Of a stretch of 64,000 nucleotides of DNA, positions 50,082 to 57,650 are shown piece after piece. The notes below the pieces were generated by a model, which was given only the letters and a program-made list of their open reading frames with translations, did not search any database and was not told where the DNA came from. Position 1 is the stretch's first letter, and the number at the start of each line of letters is the position of its first letter. Location: NCBI GenBank assembly GCA_030765405.1, contig JAVCCP010000067.1, forward strand, positions 97,051 through 161,050. Reading direction: 5' to 3'. The DNA comes from Candidatus Ancaeobacter aquaticus (GTDB lineage Bacteria; Auribacterota; Ancaeobacteria; Ancaeobacterales; Ancaeobacteraceae). A program made the position numbers and the translations under genes.

Positions 50082-50970
50082 ATGAAGAAAAAAAGACATA
50101 AAAGCACTAAGTCAAGCGAGTTTCTGAGCGAGGAAATGGAATGGCTTTATCTTACACCTGCCCAGAGAATGCATGAGACAACAAAGTTATGGCAATTATT
50201 TATTGCTATGCGAGGGAACCTTGATCCTGAACCCGATCCTCAAAGTCCTTTCTATTTTCAAAAAAAATAAAGTCAAAGGCCTTTTAATTGGCGGCCAGGC
50301 ATGCATTATTTACGGTGCAGCTGAATTTAGCCGTGATTCTGATTTTGTTGTACTTTGTAAAGAAGATAATTTACAGAGAATACGCATTGCATTAAAGGAA
50401 TTGAAAGCTAAGATTATTTATGTCCCCCCATTAGAAATTGAATATTTAGAGCGTGGTCATGCCTGCCATTTTAGGTGCGTTGCCAGAGATGTACAGGGTT
50501 TACGGGTGGACGTAATTTCTAAACTCAGAGGTTGTGAACCGTTTGATGAATTATGGAAGCGAAGGAAGAGGATAATTTTGACAAGAACCAATTCTGTAGA
50601 TGTAATTGGACTTAAAGATCTTGTCCAGTGTAAAAAAACTCAGCGGGATAAAGATTGGTTAATGCTTAAACGGCTGGTTGAAAATGACATTATTATAAAC
50701 AAAGATAAGTGTCCATCCGATGATAAAATAAGATGGTGGCTTTTTGAATCCCGAATACCCGAAACCCTTATTAAGTTGACAGAGAAGTATCCTAAAATTG
50801 TAAAAAATTGCATATCTGATAGACCGTCTTTAATCTCAGCCATAAAAAAAGATTTACAAAAACTTAACGTGCAACTTCAAGAAGAAGAACGTGTAGAACG
50901 AGAGAAAGATATAGAGTATTGGACTCCCTTGAAAAAGGAACTGGAATTATTACGCAGGAAATTAAGATAG
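50082..50970 (+). pseudogene. Minimal nucleotidyltransferase-fold protein (GG...DSD motif) split by a +1 frameshift at an A8 homopolymer (50260-50267)
   Basis: ORF1 (50082-50270) ends at TAA directly after A8. The +1 frame continues FKKNKVKGLLIGGQACIIYGAAEFSRDSDFVV..., an NTase motif. The two pieces are colinear. Confidence 0.6.
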
Positions 50971-51142
50971 TTTATAGATTATATTAATAATTGGAATGCA
51001 CGAAGTATAGTGAAAAGCATCCCAAGCCGGTTTAAGGGGTATTATTTTTATGAGAGACCTCTTTCCCTTGGACTTACAGTGGTCCTGAAAGCGGAATAGA
51101 GGGAAAAGGCAATAAAGGGAGTTGAGCCCTTATTCACTCTAA

Positions 51143-51217
51143 AACCTTATTAAGTTGACAGAGAAGTATCCTGAAATATGAGAAAAAACTGCATATCTGA
51201 TAGATCGCTCTTTATTT
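51143..51217. repeat. Roughly 85%-identical copy of a 75-bp internal segment of the nucleotidyltransferase gene (original at 50762-50834), lying in the downstream intergenic region
   Basis: Original: AAACCCTTATTAAGTTGACAGAGAAGTATCCTAAAATTGTAAAAAATTGCATATCTGATAGACCGTCTTTAATC. Copy: AACCTTATTAAGTTGACAGAGAAGTATCCTGAAATATGAGAAAAAACTGCATATCTGATAGATCGCTCTTTATTT. Confidence 0.7.
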
Positions 51218-51308
51218 ATACAAAAATCAACAGTGTTGCACTGTAATTATTACGATTTGTAAGTGCTTTATATATAGTGATATATAATTATTTACCCCCC
51301 CCCAGCCC

Positions 51309-51337
51309 TTGACAAACCTTTTATTATCAGGTATAGT
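51309..51337 (+). promoter_or_regulatory. Near-consensus sigma70 promoter (TTGACA-17-TATAGT), immediately preceded by a C9 homopolymer at 51295-51303
   Basis: -35 TTGACA at 51309-51314, 17-nt spacer, -10 TATAGT at 51332-51337. The predicted TSS is about 51344. Confidence 0.55.
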
Positions 51338-51343
51338 TCATTT

Positions 51344-51409
51344 ATGAAACGAAAAAAGAAGAGGTCTGTACATAAACGGTATCTGAATAACAGAAAGAGT
51401 GAATTATGA
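51344..51409 (+). CDS. 21-codon highly basic upstream ORF (MKRKKKRSVHKRYLNNRKSEL). Apparently leaderless. Its TGA overlaps the ATG of the giant gene (ATGA).
   Basis: ATG at 51344 is 7 nt after the -10. It is in frame through TGA at 51407-51409. The giant gene ATG is at 51406. Confidence 0.4.
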   Translation: MKRKKKRSVHKRYLNNRKSEL

Positions 51410-54400
51410 AAGCATATTCTATCTCAATGTATCGGATGACACCCTTGATGAAGGTTATTAGTCTTGTTGTAGCATTTATTTTTATTTTTACTTCTACTAC
51501 ATTTGCTATTCCTCGCACAATGTTGGATGTAACCCAGTCCAAAGGGGTGCAATCTGTTTCAAAAGAAGCGGAGCTAACCTATCACATTAATCCGGCAAAA
51601 TTTCTTGTGCCTGAAAATTTCGGTATGGTTACCGAACGGTTCATATCATCAGGAACAAAAAATGCAAAGAAACTCATTATCCAGATACAGGATTCTCATT
51701 GCAATTATGAAGCGCAAAAGAATATATCGAAAATGATTCAGATAATGGCTACGGATAAATCAACAGCCGGGGCACTGAAAATGATTTCAGTAGAAGGATC
51801 GCAAGGTGTCGCAAATTTTGATTATGAGCGTTCTTTCCCTAACAGGGAAATCAGAAGCCAAACAAGCGATTATTTTATGAAAATAGGCTGGCTTACCGGA
51901 CCGGAATTGTATGAGATAGATTCAAAAGATAAGCCGCTACTTTTTTTTGGAGCGGAAGATAAAGATCTATACGAGAAAAATCTAGATTATTTCTTGAAGA
52001 GCAAAAAGGATATAGCGCGTGAACATGCATTTATAGATAAGGTATTGAGTGTAATAGCTGTTTTGAAAAGAAAAATATTTTCTAAGGCAATGCTTAATCT
52101 CGCACAGAAACGTCAAGAATGGGATGGTGGTATTCTACAGTTTACGGATTATTGCGGCTATATAGATAATCTAGCCTTAAAACACGGATTCGGGGAAAAA
52201 GGCGCAAAATATTTTAGTGATAAGAAAAAATATCCAAATTTCACTGCTGTTATGGAAAGTATTGATATTGAAAACAAAATAAATCCTAAAAAAATACAAT
52301 CTGAAAGAGAGGCGATTGTTAGTCATCTTCAAAAAAAGATGGTCAAGGAAGAACTTTCAGAGCTTGTCAAACAATCATTACACTTGCGTATAGGTAAAAT
52401 CACTTCAGATATGTTTTATAATTATTTAAATGAGGTGGTAATAAATAAAAAAATTGATATGAAAAAATATCCTAATTTAAAAGGATATATGCAAATAGTA
52501 AAACTGAACAGCGTATTAGATGCAGGAAAACTGTTTGGCGAAGTTGACAGGATAGAAAATGCAATAAAGAACAAAATGTTCAAGAATAGGGAAGAGAAAG
52601 AACTAGACCTGATGATAAAACAGGTAAATATAATGAAGAATCTTCTTAACTTGAGAATGTCGCGACGTGATCTTTCTTTCTATGACAATAATAAGAAAGA
52701 TATGACAGCTGATAAATTGATAAGAAAAGTAGGCAAACTGGCTAAAAAAACCGGTATAAGCAGTGATCTTTCCGGCTCGATTGCATGGCTAAAGGCAAAC
52801 AAAAATATAGATGTATCGGTATGTGAAGAATTTTATAAAGCGGCTTTAGCAAGAGATAAAGTGCTTGTTGAAAATACGATTAAAGAGATGGGTAGGACGA
52901 AAGCAAATGCGGTAGCAGTAGTGAGCGGAGGTTTTCATACGCAGGGTATGAAAGAACTATTTAAGGGTAAAGGGTATTCATATGTGGTGGTTACTCCCAG
53001 AATGACTAAAGCGTATAATGATAAAATATATCTTAGCCGAATGCTGAATAAGCAGACTGAATTTGACAAAATATTTGGTGCAACAGGCACGAGGCTTTCC
53101 GCATGGACAATGAGAGATAAGTTGATATTTAAGAAATCATGGGCTACCGAATTAGCGCTTATGGCAGAAAAGTTAGGTGATTTTATCGCATTCAGGCAGT
53201 GGATTTTTATGAATAAAACAGATCTCGGCATTGATATCGTTGAAGATAAAGATGGTTTAAAGATTGTTGATCAAAGTAACGCAAAACAGGTATTGGTGAG
53301 AGAGGGTAAAGATGGTGCTCCAGAAATAACAGAAGTGAGTACGATGTCTGCCAAAATTTCTGAAGAATCAGGAGTAGACAAAGGAGCAGGACATCGAGAC
53401 ATCACGGTGGCAGAAGCCGAGAGACTTTCTGATCGCATGAAAAGCCAATTGGGTTATTTTGTTGATAAGCTTCTGGAAGAATTAGCATCAACTGAATTTG
53501 ATAATATGAAAAGAGATGCTCTGAGTATTAAAGCTCTCATTGCAGAGAATGGGAATCTTGAGGATATTAAAAAAGCGGTGAGTAAATTGCGATTATCAGA
53601 GAGCGAAGTTTATAAGCAATTGCAGGAAGAGGGCAAAGATATAGAAGAAGAGGCGTGGGTTTTTGATTGGATGGATTTCACGAAATATGTCGTTAAGAAT
53701 AATTTAGAGGCTGAAGAGGAAGAAATTGTTGTAGTAGCTGCAGCAGCTGAAGCACGTGAAGTGATAAACCAGACAGACGGTGATGATGAACTTGTCAAAG
53801 GTTCCATGCTCGCCAAAGCGCCTGAGGTTAAGGTACACGATCACTGGGAAGAGATGAATTTTATTACGGCAGGTAATAAGAAGTCTGATGTGACAGAGCG
53901 TGTAAGAGCAATCAGTGCGCTTGGCGAAATGAAAACACCTTTGACTATTAAATCGGAAGTCATAGTAAAAAAGTTACAGGATCTGGCAGTGGATAAGGGA
54001 GAGCCAAATGAGGTGCAGCAGGCTGCAATACATGCGTTGATGGCGCAAGACGAGTCAAAAGCTATCGCTTTTATGGGGGAACACTCGCTTATTCTTGTTA
54101 TGGATCAGACAGACGGTGATGATGAACTTGTCAAAGGTCCCATGCTCGCCAAAGCGCCTGTTAGAATACCTGCAGAGGCAATGGATCAGACTGACGGTGA
54201 TGATGAGAAGAAGGTGGAGCCGCGATCGCACGATCACTGGGAAGCGATGAATATTCTTACGGCCGGCGACAAGAAGTCTGATGTGACAAAGCGTGTGGAA
54301 GCGATCAGGACGCTTGGCATGATGAAAGCTCCGTCGACTTTTAAGGTGGAAGACATAGTGAAACAACTGCAGGATATGGCGATGGACAAGGGAGAGCCAG

Positions 54401-56307
54401 TCGAGATACAGCAGGCGGCGCTCGCCGCGTTTATGGAGCTGAAAGGAGAACTTCCCGCGATGATTGAGGGGACGCCGTCGATGTTTGCCAAAGTGGCTGA
54501 GAAAACAGCACGTATAAAAGATATAGAAACGATTACTAATGAGATTCATGGCATTCCGGGTATGATAGATGAGTTCGATTTGAAGGGAAGAGAAGGGATG
54601 CCGACTGGCTTCGACCTGATTAAAAGATCGCAAGACGCTGATGAGCTGATATCGGCGAGGAGTGAACAAGAATATAAAGAAAGTCGCAAAAAGATAACCG
54701 ATTGGTTGGATGAGATTAACAAGAAGATAGGGGTTGAAGCAAAAAATGTCATGCAAGAGAAAAAGGGAAAAGTGTTGGATGTTGTGTTGAAGGAATATGC
54801 CGGAAAGAGTTTTAAAAGAAATATAACTGGGGGTATCCCTCAAGGGATGACAGCGCTGGTGCAGGAGATTCAGCGGCGCGGAGAATTTCGTCTATTAACG
54901 GAACAGGATATTCAGGAAGTGTTGGAAAAGAATGTAATCGCTAATGTTCTTGCTAATCCGGCTGAGGGTAATTTCACAGTTAAGGTAATGATGAAAGAAG
55001 CCAAAGCGTCTGAAGTTACAAGACCAGGAGTTGGATCTACTGAAGGTTATGTGAACGAAGCGATATTGAATGCATATAATAGTTATGCAGAAAATCCTGA
55101 TGGCGCAGTAGAACTAATATTAAATGCATTGAGTAATATGGAGGAAGATGAGTATCTTGTGAATCTGGTAACAGCGATTGATATATTGAGTGGCGTTAAT
55201 CGCCCTAATTTCAATTCTTTAATCGATTATTTATTAGCTAAAAAAGACAGTACCGATCATAGTGGTTTAAAAGATGAGATTAAGCCGATAGTAGATGAAA
55301 TACTTGCTGCTGAGGAGGAGTTGTTGTATGATAAACTTGCGGGGAAGCTTAATGGACTGAAATTAACAGAAGGTTCAGATGCAGAAAAGGCGCGTGATAT
55401 TTTAGTAAGTGTCATAAAGACAGGTGATTTGGCTGTTATCAGGGCAACAATCTCTCGTGCTGTACTCGATATTCCCCGTGATGTGTTTCTTAATGATGTC
55501 AAGACAAACGTAGAAGATATGTTGAGTCCGGGGTTTGTTTCAAGCAGTTTAGGTGTTATGTATTATTCATTGATAGGTTTAAATGAGGCAATGCCGTCAG
55601 AGGAGTATTTTGGGGCTGAATGGAAAGTGATAAGCGAAACTGTTAAAGCCAACATTAATACCACGGCAGTTGCAGATAGCGCTCTACTAAATAAGGAAAA
55701 CATTGATAAAAAAGAGATGTTGTTCCATCATGTTGAAAAAGCTACTGATCAGGTACAGCTTAAGATGCAGTTAAAAGAACACGTTGCGGCAGCGGTACAG
55801 GCAGTATTGCAAGGGCTTGATAAACGTGTTGTTGTTGCTGTAGATTATGCTGATTGGGATCAGGGAGTGTTCGATCAGGTCAAAGAAGAGGTCTTTAAAG
55901 AAAAGAAACTTATATCTGAGGAACAGAAGAAAAAGTTTAAAGAAATTATGGAGGATCACATAGTTATAGGAAAAGAAACGGATACTACGGATACTGTTGT
56001 GAGTGAAGCAAGAGATAAATTAGATGAGCTAAAAGCTTACACGCTTGTATCAATAGATATCCCTGCAGCACTATTTGGGAAATATGAAGATATGATTACA
56101 TTGGAAAATCTCGCTATATTCCTCTTAACATCTAATGGCAAGATAAATGTCGTTGATCTTGATCTTGTTAAAGCGAAGGCTATGGGTCTTAAAGATGTGG
56201 TAGCTGCAATAGAAAGTGACAGTTTGTTGCCAATATTGGATGATGGTGCGACGATACGGACAAATGCTGTTATAAACGCGTATCAGGCACTTGGATTCCA
56301 GGCATAA
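51406..56307 (+). CDS. Giant (1633 aa) signal-anchored protein: N-terminal TM segment, Tiki/TraB/GumN/ChaN-superfamily-like domain, acidic linker, HEAT (PBS-lyase-type) repeats, long alpha-helical C-terminal region. Function unknown.
   Basis: N-terminal hydrophobic segment (LMKVISLVVAFIFIFTSTTFA). ...KKLIIQIQDSHCNYEAQ... and ...AVAVVSGGFHTQGMKELFKGKGYSYVVV... resemble the two GxxH-type motifs of the ChaN/TraB/GumN family (C-terminal consensus vAvGaaHl.Ge.Gl..lL...GY.V). Repeats HDHWEEMNFITAGNKKSDVTERVRAISALGEMK / HDHWEAMNILTAGDKKSDVTKRVEAIRTLGMMK look like HEAT repeats. AAAGAG SD lies 7 nt upstream. Family assignments are from memory. Confidence 0.8.
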   Translation: MKAYSISMYRMTPLMKVISLVVAFIFIFTSTTFAIPRTMLDVTQSKGVQSVSKEAELTYHINPAKFLVPENFGMVTERFISSGTKNAKKLIIQIQDSHCNYEAQKNISKMIQIMATDKSTAGALKMISVEGSQGVANFDYERSFPNREIRSQTSDYFMKIGWLTGPELYEIDSKDKPLLFFGAEDKDLYEKNLDYFLKSKKDIAREHAFIDKVLSVIAVLKRKIFSKAMLNLAQKRQEWDGGILQFTDYCGYIDNLALKHGFGEKGAKYFSDKKKYPNFTAVMESIDIENKINPKKIQSEREAIVSHLQKKMVKEELSELVKQSLHLRIGKITSDMFYNYLNEVVINKKIDMKKYPNLKGYMQIVKLNSVLDAGKLFGEVDRIENAIKNKMFKNREEKELDLMIKQVNIMKNLLNLRMSRRDLSFYDNNKKDMTADKLIRKVGKLAKKTGISSDLSGSIAWLKANKNIDVSVCEEFYKAALARDKVLVENTIKEMGRTKANAVAVVSGGFHTQGMKELFKGKGYSYVVVTPRMTKAYNDKIYLSRMLNKQTEFDKIFGATGTRLSAWTMRDKLIFKKSWATELALMAEKLGDFIAFRQWIFMNKTDLGIDIVEDKDGLKIVDQSNAKQVLVREGKDGAPEITEVSTMSAKISEESGVDKGAGHRDITVAEAERLSDRMKSQLGYFVDKLLEELASTEFDNMKRDALSIKALIAENGNLEDIKKAVSKLRLSESEVYKQLQEEGKDIEEEAWVFDWMDFTKYVVKNNLEAEEEEIVVVAAAAEAREVINQTDGDDELVKGSMLAKAPEVKVHDHWEEMNFITAGNKKSDVTERVRAISALGEMKTPLTIKSEVIVKKLQDLAVDKGEPNEVQQAAIHALMAQDESKAIAFMGEHSLILVMDQTDGDDELVKGPMLAKAPVRIPAEAMDQTDGDDEKKVEPRSHDHWEAMNILTAGDKKSDVTKRVEAIRTLGMMKAPSTFKVEDIVKQLQDMAMDKGEPVEIQQAALAAFMELKGELPAMIEGTPSMFAKVAEKTARIKDIETITNEIHGIPGMIDEFDLKGREGMPTGFDLIKRSQDADELISARSEQEYKESRKKITDWLDEINKKIGVEAKNVMQEKKGKVLDVVLKEYAGKSFKRNITGGIPQGMTALVQEIQRRGEFRLLTEQDIQEVLEKNVIANVLANPAEGNFTVKVMMKEAKASEVTRPGVGSTEGYVNEAILNAYNSYAENPDGAVELILNALSNMEEDEYLVNLVTAIDILSGVNRPNFNSLIDYLLAKKDSTDHSGLKDEIKPIVDEILAAEEELLYDKLAGKLNGLKLTEGSDAEKARDILVSVIKTGDLAVIRATISRAVLDIPRDVFLNDVKTNVEDMLSPGFVSSSLGVMYYSLIGLNEAMPSEEYFGAEWKVISETVKANINTTAVADSALLNKENIDKKEMLFHHVEKATDQVQLKMQLKEHVAAAVQAVLQGLDKRVVVAVDYADWDQGVFDQVKEEVFKEKKLISEEQKKKFKEIMEDHIVIGKETDTTDTVVSEARDKLDELKAYTLVSIDIPAALFGKYEDMITLENLAIFLLTSNGKINVVDLDLVKAKAMGLKDVVAAIESDSLLPILDDGATIRTNAVINAYQALGFQA

Positions 56308-56324
56308 AAATCGTAACTCGTAAT

Positions 56325-56368
56325 AGCAAAGGGCATGTCACAGGTGATGTGCCCTTTGCTTTATTATT
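56325..56368 (+). terminator. Intrinsic terminator for the giant gene: 17-bp stem (two G.U) followed by TTATTATT. It lies between convergent genes.
   Basis: AGCAAAGGGCATGTCAC-AG-GTGATGTGCCCTTTGCT then TTATTATTCTG. Confidence 0.6.
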
Positions 56369-56465
56369 CTGCATCGTTGTGTAGAAATAATAACGCAGGT
56401 TAAAGCCCTGCGGCTAACGTACTAGAGTAGGATAGGTGTCCTGCCTGTCAAAAAGAAAAAGTTGG

Positions 56466-57650
56466 TTAAAAACTGATCATGGTTTCAAAATCTTCAAAAG
56501 TGATGAATCTTATCGTGCATTGATTTTCAATAACAGTTTCTTTAAGGTTATTATTGATAACGTAGGCAGTTTTTGTGTTTTTGTATCTGAGAAGGAATCT
56601 TCTTAGCCCTTTTGGTATTTTTAAATTTGTGATGTTGCTTTTAACTTCAATAGGTATGGGTTTTCTATCGATTGACAAAATGAAATCTACTTCATCTCCA
56701 TCCTTTGTTCTCCAAAATTTAAGTTCCATGTTTGGAGCTAGCATAGAATGTAATTTTAAAAATACAAAACTTTCATAGAGGACCCCTTTGTCAGTACGTT
56801 CTGATACTGATGAGAAATCTTTTAATAATGCATTTCTTATTCCCAGATCGTATAGAAAAGTTTTGCATGATTTTCTTAATTCATTGCCTAGATTATTTGA
56901 ATAGCTATATAAGCGAAAATTAACATATGTTTCTTCGAGGATATCAAGATATCGATTTATGGCTTTTGAACTGAGTCTGACCTGATTTGATAGCGAATGT
57001 ATTGAAATAGTAGATCCTTGATTTTCGGCAAGTAGATATAGAAGGTGATTAAATGCTCTGATATTTTCTTCTTTGATAAGAGATTTAATGTCTTTTAATA
57101 TATAACTACTGAGAAGCTCTGATAACATTTGTTGTTTTCTATCTTCAAAATCTGTATGAGTTAATCCTGGCATGCCTCCGTAACGCATATAATAATCCAA
57201 AGGATAATTTTTATAATGTGTTTTTAATTCTGAATACTGTAGAGGGTAAATTCTGTATAAAAACCTTCTTCCTGCGAGACTTTCTTTTAAATGTTTATGG
57301 ATTTCTAAAGAGGACGATCCAGAACAAAAGATCTTTGTTTTAATATTGGAATCAAAAATAGCTTTGAATATTTTTGAAGCATTTTGAATATATTGAAATT
57401 CATCAATAAATACCATTTCTCCAGAATTACATATCATAGTAATAATATCTTTATTAGATTTATTGAATTCAGCGAGGACTTGTGGTTGTTCAAGATCGAA
57501 AAATGATGTTTTGTAACCGGACTTTTGAGCGTGTTTTTGAAGCTGTTTAAGTATGGTTGTTTTGCCAACCTGTCTTGGTCCCAAGAGAATATCAATCTCA
57601 GGTTGTGTTATTTCATTATGTAAAGTGTTAAGTATTAAACGTTTAATCAT
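56466..57650 (-). CDS. AAA+ ATPase of the AAA_14 + DUF4143 family
   Basis: Walker A LLGPRQVGKTT, Walker B VFIDEFQY, and a C-terminal DUF4143-like region. Common stand-alone family of unknown role. Confidence 0.7.
   Translation of the reverse strand: MIKRLILNTLHNEITQPEIDILLGPRQVGKTTILKQLQKHAQKSGYKTSFFDLEQPQVLAEFNKSNKDIITMICNSGEMVFIDEFQYIQNASKIFKAIFDSNIKTKIFCSGSSSLEIHKHLKESLAGRRFLYRIYPLQYSELKTHYKNYPLDYYMRYGGMPGLTHTDFEDRKQQMLSELLSSYILKDIKSLIKEENIRAFNHLLYLLAENQGSTISIHSLSNQVRLSSKAINRYLDILEETYVNFRLYSYSNNLGNELRKSCKTFLYDLGIRNALLKDFSSVSERTDKGVLYESFVFLKLHSMLAPNMELKFWRTKDGDEVDFILSIDRKPIPIEVKSNITNLKIPKGLRRFLLRYKNTKTAYVINNNLKETVIENQCTIRFITFEDFETMISF

Follow-up and report, generated by a model that had tools for sequence, protein, structure and literature searches.

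A 64,000-nucleotide (nt) stretch of the genome of Candidatus Ancaeobacter aquaticus (GenBank assembly GCA_030765405.1, contig JAVCCP010000067.1, positions 97,051 to 161,050 of the forward strand; hereafter the window, to which all positions refer) carries a complete open reading frame (ORF) for a protein of 1633 amino acids (aa). The organism belongs to the phylum Candidatus Auribacterota of the PVC group; the paper on Ca. Ancaeobacter aquaticus presents it as a free-living fermenter, known from a metagenome-assembled genome (MAG) from Ace Lake, Antarctica. The long ORF is nearly twice the size of the runner-up in the window, the 884-aa valyl-tRNA synthetase, in agreement with an earlier note on this DNA which had singled it out as far larger than any other. 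Its product has exactly the sequence of MDP8263465.1, a “hypothetical protein” of Candidatus Ancaeobacter aquaticus found on 4 contigs, the longest of 163 kb, and the ORF is therefore no artefact of assembly or reading. Taken as a whole, the protein is, on balance, best explained as a long polypeptide exported through the Sec pathway and built of an N-terminal hydrolase “head,” a variable body and a C-terminal tail. The gene and the parts of its product are as follows:

51406..56307, plus strand: complete ORF of 1633 aa, ATG to stop, stop codon included (ORF reading)
51406..51507, plus strand: Sec-type signal peptide, possibly a signal anchor, residues 1–34 (sole hydrophobic segment)
51601..52014, plus strand: head, N-terminal half of the alpha/beta core, residues 66–203, with D96-x-H98, E130-G131, G182-x-E184, Y189 and N192
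52015..52806, plus strand: helical insert of ~265 aa in the core, residues 204–467, a “lid” by position (model)
52807..53049, plus strand: head, C-terminal half of the core, residues 468–548, with F476-Y477, R483-D484, G508-G509-F510-H511 and P531
53050..53754, plus strand: acidic, mostly unmodelled linker, residues 549–783 (predicted local distance difference test, pLDDT, below 50 from residue 549)
53755..54444, plus strand: duplicated ~95-aa unit, residues 784–879 and 923–1010, with a HEAT_2 match in each
55108..56304, plus strand: C-terminal domain, residues 1235–1633, shared with the C-terminus of the Auribacterota relative P0014 and partly with that of P0012
56224..56304, plus strand: extreme C-terminal tail, LLPILDDGATIRTNAVINAYQALGFQA (jackhmmer on the last 60 aa)

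The N-terminus has the layout MKAYSISMYRMTPLMK-VISLVVAFIFIF-TSTTFA followed by IP, that is, a basic n-region, the h-region VISLVVAFIFIF and the c-region TSTTFA, the last of which obeys the small-x-small rule (A/V/T at −3, A at −1). The hydrophobic segment read earlier at this end is indeed present and is the sole one by the Kyte-Doolittle scale, as the best 19-residue windows all begin at residues 8–22 and none lies further along the 1633-aa protein. Cleavage is likely to take place after A34. Across 135 members of the family, net charge drops from +3.0 ahead of the h-region to −0.33 over the 20 residues that come next, and from this charge bias across the hydrophobic core the head is therefore predicted to lie outside the cytoplasm. 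With its predicted signal peptide pointing outward, the protein is plausibly surface-exposed. Residue conservation was counted throughout in a local alignment of 153 relatives that are 22–52% identical; within the signal segment, K/R16 is kept in 137, F26 in 132 and A34 in 103 of them. This segment is unusually conserved for a family of about 25–30% identity, perhaps because a dedicated step recognizes it or because it is retained as an anchor. About one-third of the relatives, above all the longest, carry 1 to 29 further hydrophobic segments.

The body behind the head opens with the acidic linker that had been noted before: residues 549–783 contain 20% D+E versus 14% K+R, include EEEEIVVVAAAAEAREV at residues 770–786 and have no homologues beyond the identical protein. 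The HEAT repeats recognized in the earlier note by the stretches HDHWEEMN (residues 811–818) and RVRAISALGEM (residues 832–842) also hold. Both stretches lie within the duplicated ~95-aa unit, whose copies at residues 784–879 and 923–1010 align with a local score of 275, and Pfam HEAT_2 (PF13646) matches two stretches at 30.0 bits, above its 27.7-bit cut-off (E 6.5e-7, best at residues 826–890). The duplicated HEAT-like unit is bracketed by three occurrences of (N/D)QTDGDDE(LVKG.MLAKAP), at residues 788, 900, and 927 (53767–54213). HEAT_2 is the sole return of full-length Pfam, NCBIfam and PDB sequence searches. The remaining ~620 aa at the C-terminus match neither a Pfam nor an NCBIfam model, and AlphaFold renders residues 1010–1633 as mostly helical at low confidence (pLDDT 54.5), in keeping with the earlier description of a helical part devoid of any recognizable signature. 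Queried with the C-terminal 624 aa, a word-index search for homologues gave zero matches and missed even the identical protein. Local phmmer comparison, in contrast, places the C-terminal domain at residues 2503–2882 of P0014 (2,882 aa; E 1e-44) and at residues 2350–2458 of P0012 (E 1.5e-15).

The head domain and its place in a known superfamily

The AlphaFold model of the head, built on a ten-sequence alignment, is confident over residues 60–545 (mean pLDDT 79, predicted template modelling score 0.70). Its core consists of strands at residues 73–79, 90–96, 124–129, 179–183, 502–508, and 525–531 and a short strand at 133–135. Between residues ~204 and 467 the core is interrupted by an all-helical insert of thirteen helices (pLDDT mostly 79–95), in which Y249, E289, and E300 are nearly invariant and which has zero Pfam matches. 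The central parallel beta-sheet flanked by helices superposes on solved members of the Tiki/TraB/ChaN/erythromycin-esterase superfamily. In a structure comparison covering 48,164 chains, members of this superfamily were returned at the following ranks and scores:

Rank 1: HopBA1 (5t09), 8.3
Rank 2: Ere-type protein 2rad, 8.1
Rank 3: ChaN (2g5g), 8.0
Rank 4: Ere-type protein 2qgm, 7.8
Rank 5: TraB-family protein (8bqs_DQ), 7.5
Rank 6: EreC (6xcq), 7.4
Rank 9: RRSP (5w6l), 6.5
Rank 32: PMT (2ebf), 5.7

In the model, D96-x-H98 follows strand 90–96 and E130 follows strand 124–129, while R483 lies in helix 471–498 ahead of strand 502–508; H511 comes directly after that strand, with strand 525–531 next. 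H98, E130, R483, G508, G509, H511, and P531 are present in all 153 relatives. Position 96 is Asp in 144, Asn in seven and Glu in two, and Q95, N100, Q104, E184, Y189, N192, F476, Y477, and D484 are nearly invariant. Two motifs had been picked from the sequence beforehand as resembling the paired motifs of the superfamily, namely IIQIQDSHCNYEAQ at residues 91–104 (51676–51717) and AVAVVSGGFHTQGMKELFKGKGY at residues 502–524 (52909–52977). By fold and motif these are the histidine-bearing catalytic motifs, with H98 and H511, respectively. A published set of TIKI-superfamily structures comprises HopBA1, a Bcr135-type Ere protein, ChaN, PMT, and RRSP, and the catalytic signature described there for RRSP and Bcr135 consists of two His and two Glu (E3900-x-H3902, E3930, H4030) together with R4001, located at the ends of core strands (PMC6254334). 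The head carries a corresponding set of two His, two acids and one Arg in the same order and secondary-structure context, D96, H98, E130, H511, and R483 mirroring the experimentally defined arrangement of the MARTX effector RRSP. By fold and motif, the modelled head very probably belongs to the Tiki/TraB/ChaN/erythromycin-esterase superfamily; it is assigned to no existing Pfam family.

Within this superfamily, the head differs from each of the better known branches. It has no detectable sequence similarity to the erythromycin esterase family (EreC 6XCQ; Bcr135/Bcr136-type 2RAD and 2QGM), from which it is also set apart by a much larger insert (~265 aa), by export, by fusion to a long body and by the lack of a macrolide link. 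Against the ChaN family (PF04187) it scores 12–20 bits versus the required 27.7; it has no lipobox, is interrupted by a large helical insert, is followed by a body of >1000 aa and is encoded with no iron or haem genes nearby. Compared with TraB/PrgY/GumN proteins (PF01963) and the metazoan Tiki proteases, the first motif of the head reads Q-D-x-H-x-N instead of G-x-x-H, the profile–profile probability given by hhalign is 3.5% and no metal dependence can be inferred for the head.

A family of constant heads and variable bodies, with a clade-conserved tail

Scored against 1.84 billion cluster representatives, the head profile recovers 9,890 at E ≤ 1e-3 and 6,793 at E ≤ 1e-30. In all of the best-scoring 150 of these 9,890, which were listed, the head is N-terminal and starts within the first ~57 residues, the truncated fragment P0006 excepted (relatives are labelled P and their loci L). 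The proteins listed are 519–7,853 aa long (median 2,091), and only 8 of 153 fall below 700 aa. The 1633-aa protein itself reaches 609 bits against the hidden Markov model (HMM) of the head family and comprises both the signal segment and the ~490-aa head; the same HMM detects no second head copy in the window. Whole-protein homologues overlap with it at residues ~5–570 only and differ in sequence after the head, the bodies being mutually unrelated among relatives. Four to five homologues, Auribacterota included, are 50–52% identical and the others 22–28%. No model of the head exists in Pfam (2025) or NCBIfam (2026), and the precomputed Pfam annotation over the head is empty in every homologue. 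If so placed, the family amounts to a new branch of a known superfamily, one that is very large and has a distinctive structure, and it supplies the constant head of long proteins in Omnitrophota and Auribacterota. The earlier view of the 1633-aa protein as a domain combination without match gives way to that of one member of an unannotated family of ~9,890 representatives, with a constant head and a variable rest.

A scan of GTDB with a single peptide pattern and one genome per species returned 323 relatives. Among the 80 loci listed, the label is Candidatus Omnitrophota in most cases, and some belong to differently labelled MAGs; here the head either leads ORFs of 1,000 to >3,900 aa or is a separate protein of ~515–600 aa, and several loci carry two head copies. 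At least three head paralogues (P0004, P0013, and P0014) are found in the Auribacterota genome GCA_042584625.1. The Omnitrophota and their relatives are noted for very long proteins without assigned roles. The same head occupies the N-terminus of Omnitrophota ORFs of 1,000 to >3,900 aa and of representatives of up to 7,853 aa. Features in common with the published Omnitrophota giants are signal peptides, HEAT_2 scaffolding and mixed enzyme domains (West-Roberts et al., 2023; 2026 complete-genome preprint), whereas the 1633-aa protein is much shorter than these giants, which include proteins of >30,000 aa, comes from Auribacterota and has no further transmembrane segments. The N-terminal regions of Omnitrophota giant genes have been reported to “generally lack identifiable domains” (West-Roberts et al., 2023), and the words Tiki and TraB are absent from both preprints. 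In the searchable literature, no work was found that links Omnitrophota with Tiki, TraB or Ere or that describes such an N-terminal head.

At the other end, complete family members appear to finish in a ~30-aa tail of the form “..LP..P.D....helix..[SA][LVA]” followed by the stop codon, for example ...IIRILPRIKPVD..EA.EAYKAA.QALRSL or, in Omnitrophota, ...LLLKMPIKPFD...QLEQRRKVMWSV. A jackhmmer search with the last 60 aa of the 1633-aa protein retrieved P0014, P0006, P0002, P0015, P0003, and P0004 (E 1e-29 to 6e-16), six proteins of the Auribacterota clade which share the tail and differ in their middle regions and bodies. Tail-bearing loci include L002, L005, L016–L018, L022, L023, and L040, and head-less long proteins of the same gene arrays bear the tail as well. 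An iterated HMM of the Omnitrophota tail matched 88 of 561 C-termini; the matched proteins in these loci have a median length of 1,643 aa as opposed to 427 aa for the unmatched ones, and some are without a head. In an hhalign comparison, the window-type and Omnitrophota tails align in register at no better than P 0.016 (0.28 for a reversed control), and a common origin of the two tail types is tentative.

The head also occurs as a separate protein. At L036, L037, L038, L054, and L065, a stand-alone head is terminated by a genuine stop codon, and the gene behind it has a start codon and a signal peptide of its own, on which ground frameshift artefacts were rejected for these five loci, a verdict that does not extend to L006 and L026. 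Eight other loci (L045:3475-5346 and seven similar ones) carry a conserved ~600-aa ORF after the stand-alone head. The one example read, from L045, has a signal peptide and the tail-like end ...EFEMLPPEFILSDEMRFKVEVVKAILEQA, and the three ORFs of this family that were scanned gave zero Pfam matches. Heads shorter than 700 aa account for 28 rows from 27 loci (one with two copies), some of them contig-end fragments; in 15 of the 28 rows, a long ORF on the same strand or the conserved 600-aa ORF lies downstream. Signal peptides were recognized in 5 of 7 junctions read, and tail-like C-termini in several. The association of the head with such long or 600-aa proteins holds whether the two are fused or separate.

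Flanking signals and genomic setting

The long gene is flanked by the following features:

51295..51303, plus strand: run of 9 C directly 5′ of the −35 hexamer (read directly)
51309..51337, plus strand: sigma-70-type promoter-like site TTGACA-17-TATAGT, 11/12 (top promoter-like match in 50900–56500)
51344..51409, plus strand: basic upstream ORF (uORF) of 21 codons, peptide MKRKKKRSVHKRYLNNRKSEL, whose TGA overlaps the main ATG as ATGA (read directly)
56325..56360, plus strand: intrinsic-terminator-like hairpin with a 16-bp stem, then TTATTATT (begins 18 nt past the stop codon)

With a promoter-like site and a terminator-like hairpin of its own, the gene appears to form a transcription unit by itself. 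The total number of promoter-like sites in 50900–56500 is no higher than in shuffled sequences; the same TTGACAAA...−10 layout is also found 5′ of the P0003 and P0014 genes. The uORF starts ~7 nt past the −10 hexamer and could be leaderless if the promoter is real. Its overlap with the main start codon as ATGA is an arrangement typical of translational coupling. The earlier note had raised the question of whether orthologs always carry the uORF and the poly-C tract. Neither is kept in the three relatives examined (L081–L083): no uORF lies 5′ of these genes, and L082 and L083 show just “CCC(C)TTGACAAA” at the position of the long C run. Both were consequently rejected as conserved regulatory elements and are taken as features local to this gene.

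Tex and UvrB bracket the locus, which also contains a 265-aa nucleotidyltransferase (NTase)-like ORF (50173–50970, with a 62-aa ORF at 50082–50270) upstream of the long gene and, on the opposite strand, an AAA_14/DUF4143 ATPase (56466–57650, minus strand), the sole large minus-strand gene in that part of the window. The NTase-like ORF, the long gene and the ATPase form a three-gene non-housekeeping patch between Tex and UvrB, with a lower G+C content at its edges (0.33–0.36). The 265-aa ORF has zero Pfam matches; it shares 30% identity over 57 aa (pairwise E 5e-5) with an NTP_transf_5/AbiEii-like gene that follows P0014 in L083, the two having in common the region of a GG...D.D nucleotidyltransferase motif. 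The NTase-like gene beside the long gene in both genomes may be a toxin–antitoxin-type module. GC skew is positive in all 2-kb bins of the window (0.12–0.31) and the large ORFs are almost all on the plus strand, as would suit a leading-strand segment. The contexts of the closest relatives are unrelated, and many of these genes stand in tandem with other long ones: in L081 and L082, the loci of P0004 and P0003, such arrays comprise ORFs of 592, 1962, and 2409 aa and of 5328 and 2246 aa and adjoin glnE, glnA, a P-II protein gene and glnD.

Proposed function and competing explanations

On the preferred explanation, a single transcription unit would encode a Sec-exported, extracytoplasmic protein of head, body and tail. 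The head (residues ~60–548) would be a very divergent superfamily member whose parallel-sheet alpha/beta core keeps D96-x-H98, E130, R483, and H511, with the ~265-aa helical subdomain inserted where Ere enzymes carry their lid. Its site of action would be the periplasm or cell surface and its activity that of a water-activating hydrolase (peptidase or esterase), in which a His-Glu pair would activate the water, as proposed for the superfamily (PMC6254334). The head is more likely than not catalytic; a peptide is a possible but more tentative choice of substrate. Together, the linker, the pair of HEAT-like units and the helical domain at the C-terminus would serve as a lineage-specific scaffold or cargo, and the conserved tail as a recognition or sorting element. 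Since the head is fused to tail-bearing proteins or encoded just upstream of them, it might act on such proteins, in cis or in trans, or share an external target with them. The more specific proposal that its targets are the tails or bodies of proteins of its own class is improbable.

Several results weigh against this explanation, beginning with the sequence-level tests of the superfamily call. Pfam matched neither PF04187 nor PF01963 to the native 1633-aa protein. Among ten native relatives, there was one match to PF04187 (E 0.012) and one to PF01963 (E 0.017), both below threshold. After deletion of the insert, PF04187 recurred in 6 of 10 constructs (E 0.001–0.16, 12.4–19.6 bits against the cut-off of 27.7), the best result being a relative with E 0.001 and 19.6 bits, still short of the gathering threshold. 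These alignments always place the RD...GGFH segment on profile positions ~140–204, the C-terminal third of the profile. As a weak echo of the superfamily, this recurrence counts in favour of the placement of the head. Searches of PDB sequences with the head profile, with or without the insert, gave no relevant match. Against a profile of 90 orthologues of Escherichia coli YbaP (TraB family), which is of low diversity as it holds enterobacterial orthologues only, hhalign returned a non-significant P of 0.012 (probability 3.5%), with R-D/R-N and GGFH/GALH in register and the first half mis-registered; a second run against YbaP gave a probability of 0.3%. A Foldseek search of PDB with the whole model found nothing at E ≤ 0.001, EreC and HopBA1 appearing at E 0.6–1.1. 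Significant sequence or profile similarity to a known Tiki-superfamily family was obtained by none of the methods run. As all sequence-level tests remained below threshold, the superfamily call rests on fold and motif. The earlier note had proposed a Tiki/ChaN/TraB-like domain and had named the lack of a significant HMM hit as its own refutation; read literally, that test went against it, while the fold and the motifs bear the proposal out.

Further points against the preferred explanation concern the mechanism. The five residues correspond to the superfamily set in order and strand context, and their active-site geometry is presumed; the first acid of the set is Asp and not Glu; and the superfamily includes non-enzymes, as ChaN binds haem and PMT C1 is without the motif (PMC6254334). 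Some relatives join the head to cytoplasm-type domains, such as GGDEF, HD/GNAT and a DOT1-like S-adenosylmethionine (SAM) methyltransferase, which are odd for an extracytoplasmic site. A conserved neighbourhood was rejected, with no partner family in more than 8 of the 80 listed loci, which leaves no pointer to a pathway. The tail of the 1633-aa protein was not recruited by the iterated Omnitrophota tail HMM, and a statistical join between the two tail types is missing.

Two alternatives fare best, although both are unlikely. In the first, the head is a trafficking, anchoring or chaperone module for very long polypeptides and its enzyme-like residues are structural, by analogy with conserved N-terminal modules in other giant secreted proteins. 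The N-terminal position of the head in the best 150 representatives listed, directly behind an unusually conserved signal segment, would suit such a role, as would the unrelated bodies behind it and the conserved tails. Invariant polar residues at strand ends are, however, typical of catalysis, and heads also stand alone with their own stop codon. Furthermore, the long proteins encoded downstream of them have signal peptides of their own; the export of a body therefore needs no fused head.

The second alternative, about as unlikely, is a MARTX- or polymorphic-toxin-style effector delivered to other cells, whose head would serve either as an endopeptidase like RRSP or for autoprocessing. The structural matches include the effector domains RRSP, PMT, and HopBA1, and, as with RRSP, PMT C1 and HopBA1, the domain sits in a very large secreted multidomain protein. 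The GGDEF, HD/GNAT and DOT1-like methyltransferase domains fused to the head in relatives also fit an effector, and published work ties Omnitrophota giant proteins to predation. On the other hand, the 1633-aa protein differs from MARTX/RTX toxins by its Sec-type N-terminus, and Pfam, down to E 10, detects no RTX-type repeats, CPD or other toxin-trafficking domain. In place of the type I secretion system context of these toxins, its neighbours are Tex, the NTase-like ORF, the AAA_14/DUF4143 ATPase and UvrB, and no immunity-like or secretion-system gene is adjacent to it. Ca. Ancaeobacter is reported as a free-living fermenter, and “predat” and “giant” have zero occurrences in its paper. Because a purely periplasmic role leaves the cytoplasm-type domains of relatives unexplained, an effector is kept in consideration.

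More doubtful still is a convergent or generic alpha/beta sandwich, that is, a new fold family of unrelated function whose likeness to Tiki proteins is coincidental. Against coincidence, ranks 1–6, 9, and 32 out of 48,164 chains searched go to eight different structures of the Tiki superfamily, which make up a very small share of that set. The acid-x-His, Glu, Arg and Gly-x-x-His elements come in the order and the secondary-structure setting of the superfamily, and the weak Pfam matches all fall on the same family and in register. The least probable alternative is a non-catalytic, ChaN-type module that binds haem or another cofactor in an envelope receptor or scavenger, against which stand the sub-threshold PF04187 matches confined to the shared RD...GxxH segment, a His/acid/Arg/His set which is fully invariant in 153 distant relatives and fits the signature of active TIKI enzymes (PMC6254334), and the lack of iron or haem uptake genes near the long gene.

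Returning to the exported hydrolase, it would be a long shot, no likelier than convergence, that head and tail belong together as the two parts of a protein-maturation or sorting system, previously unrecognized, in Omnitrophota and Auribacterota. In such a system, the exported head, whether fused or encoded upstream, would recognize the tail of long secreted proteins and would cleave, anchor or join them, akin to the sortase-type handling of C-terminal signals. If true, this would explain how both phyla manage exceptionally long extracellular proteins.

The head gives functional work on the thousands of unannotated long proteins in these two phyla a first point of entry: an expressible construct, five residues to mutate and a tail as candidate partner motif. 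A large branch with a big helical insert would be added to the Tiki/TraB/Ere superfamily, and the class of long proteins reaches the Auribacterota, which are reported as free-living fermenters.

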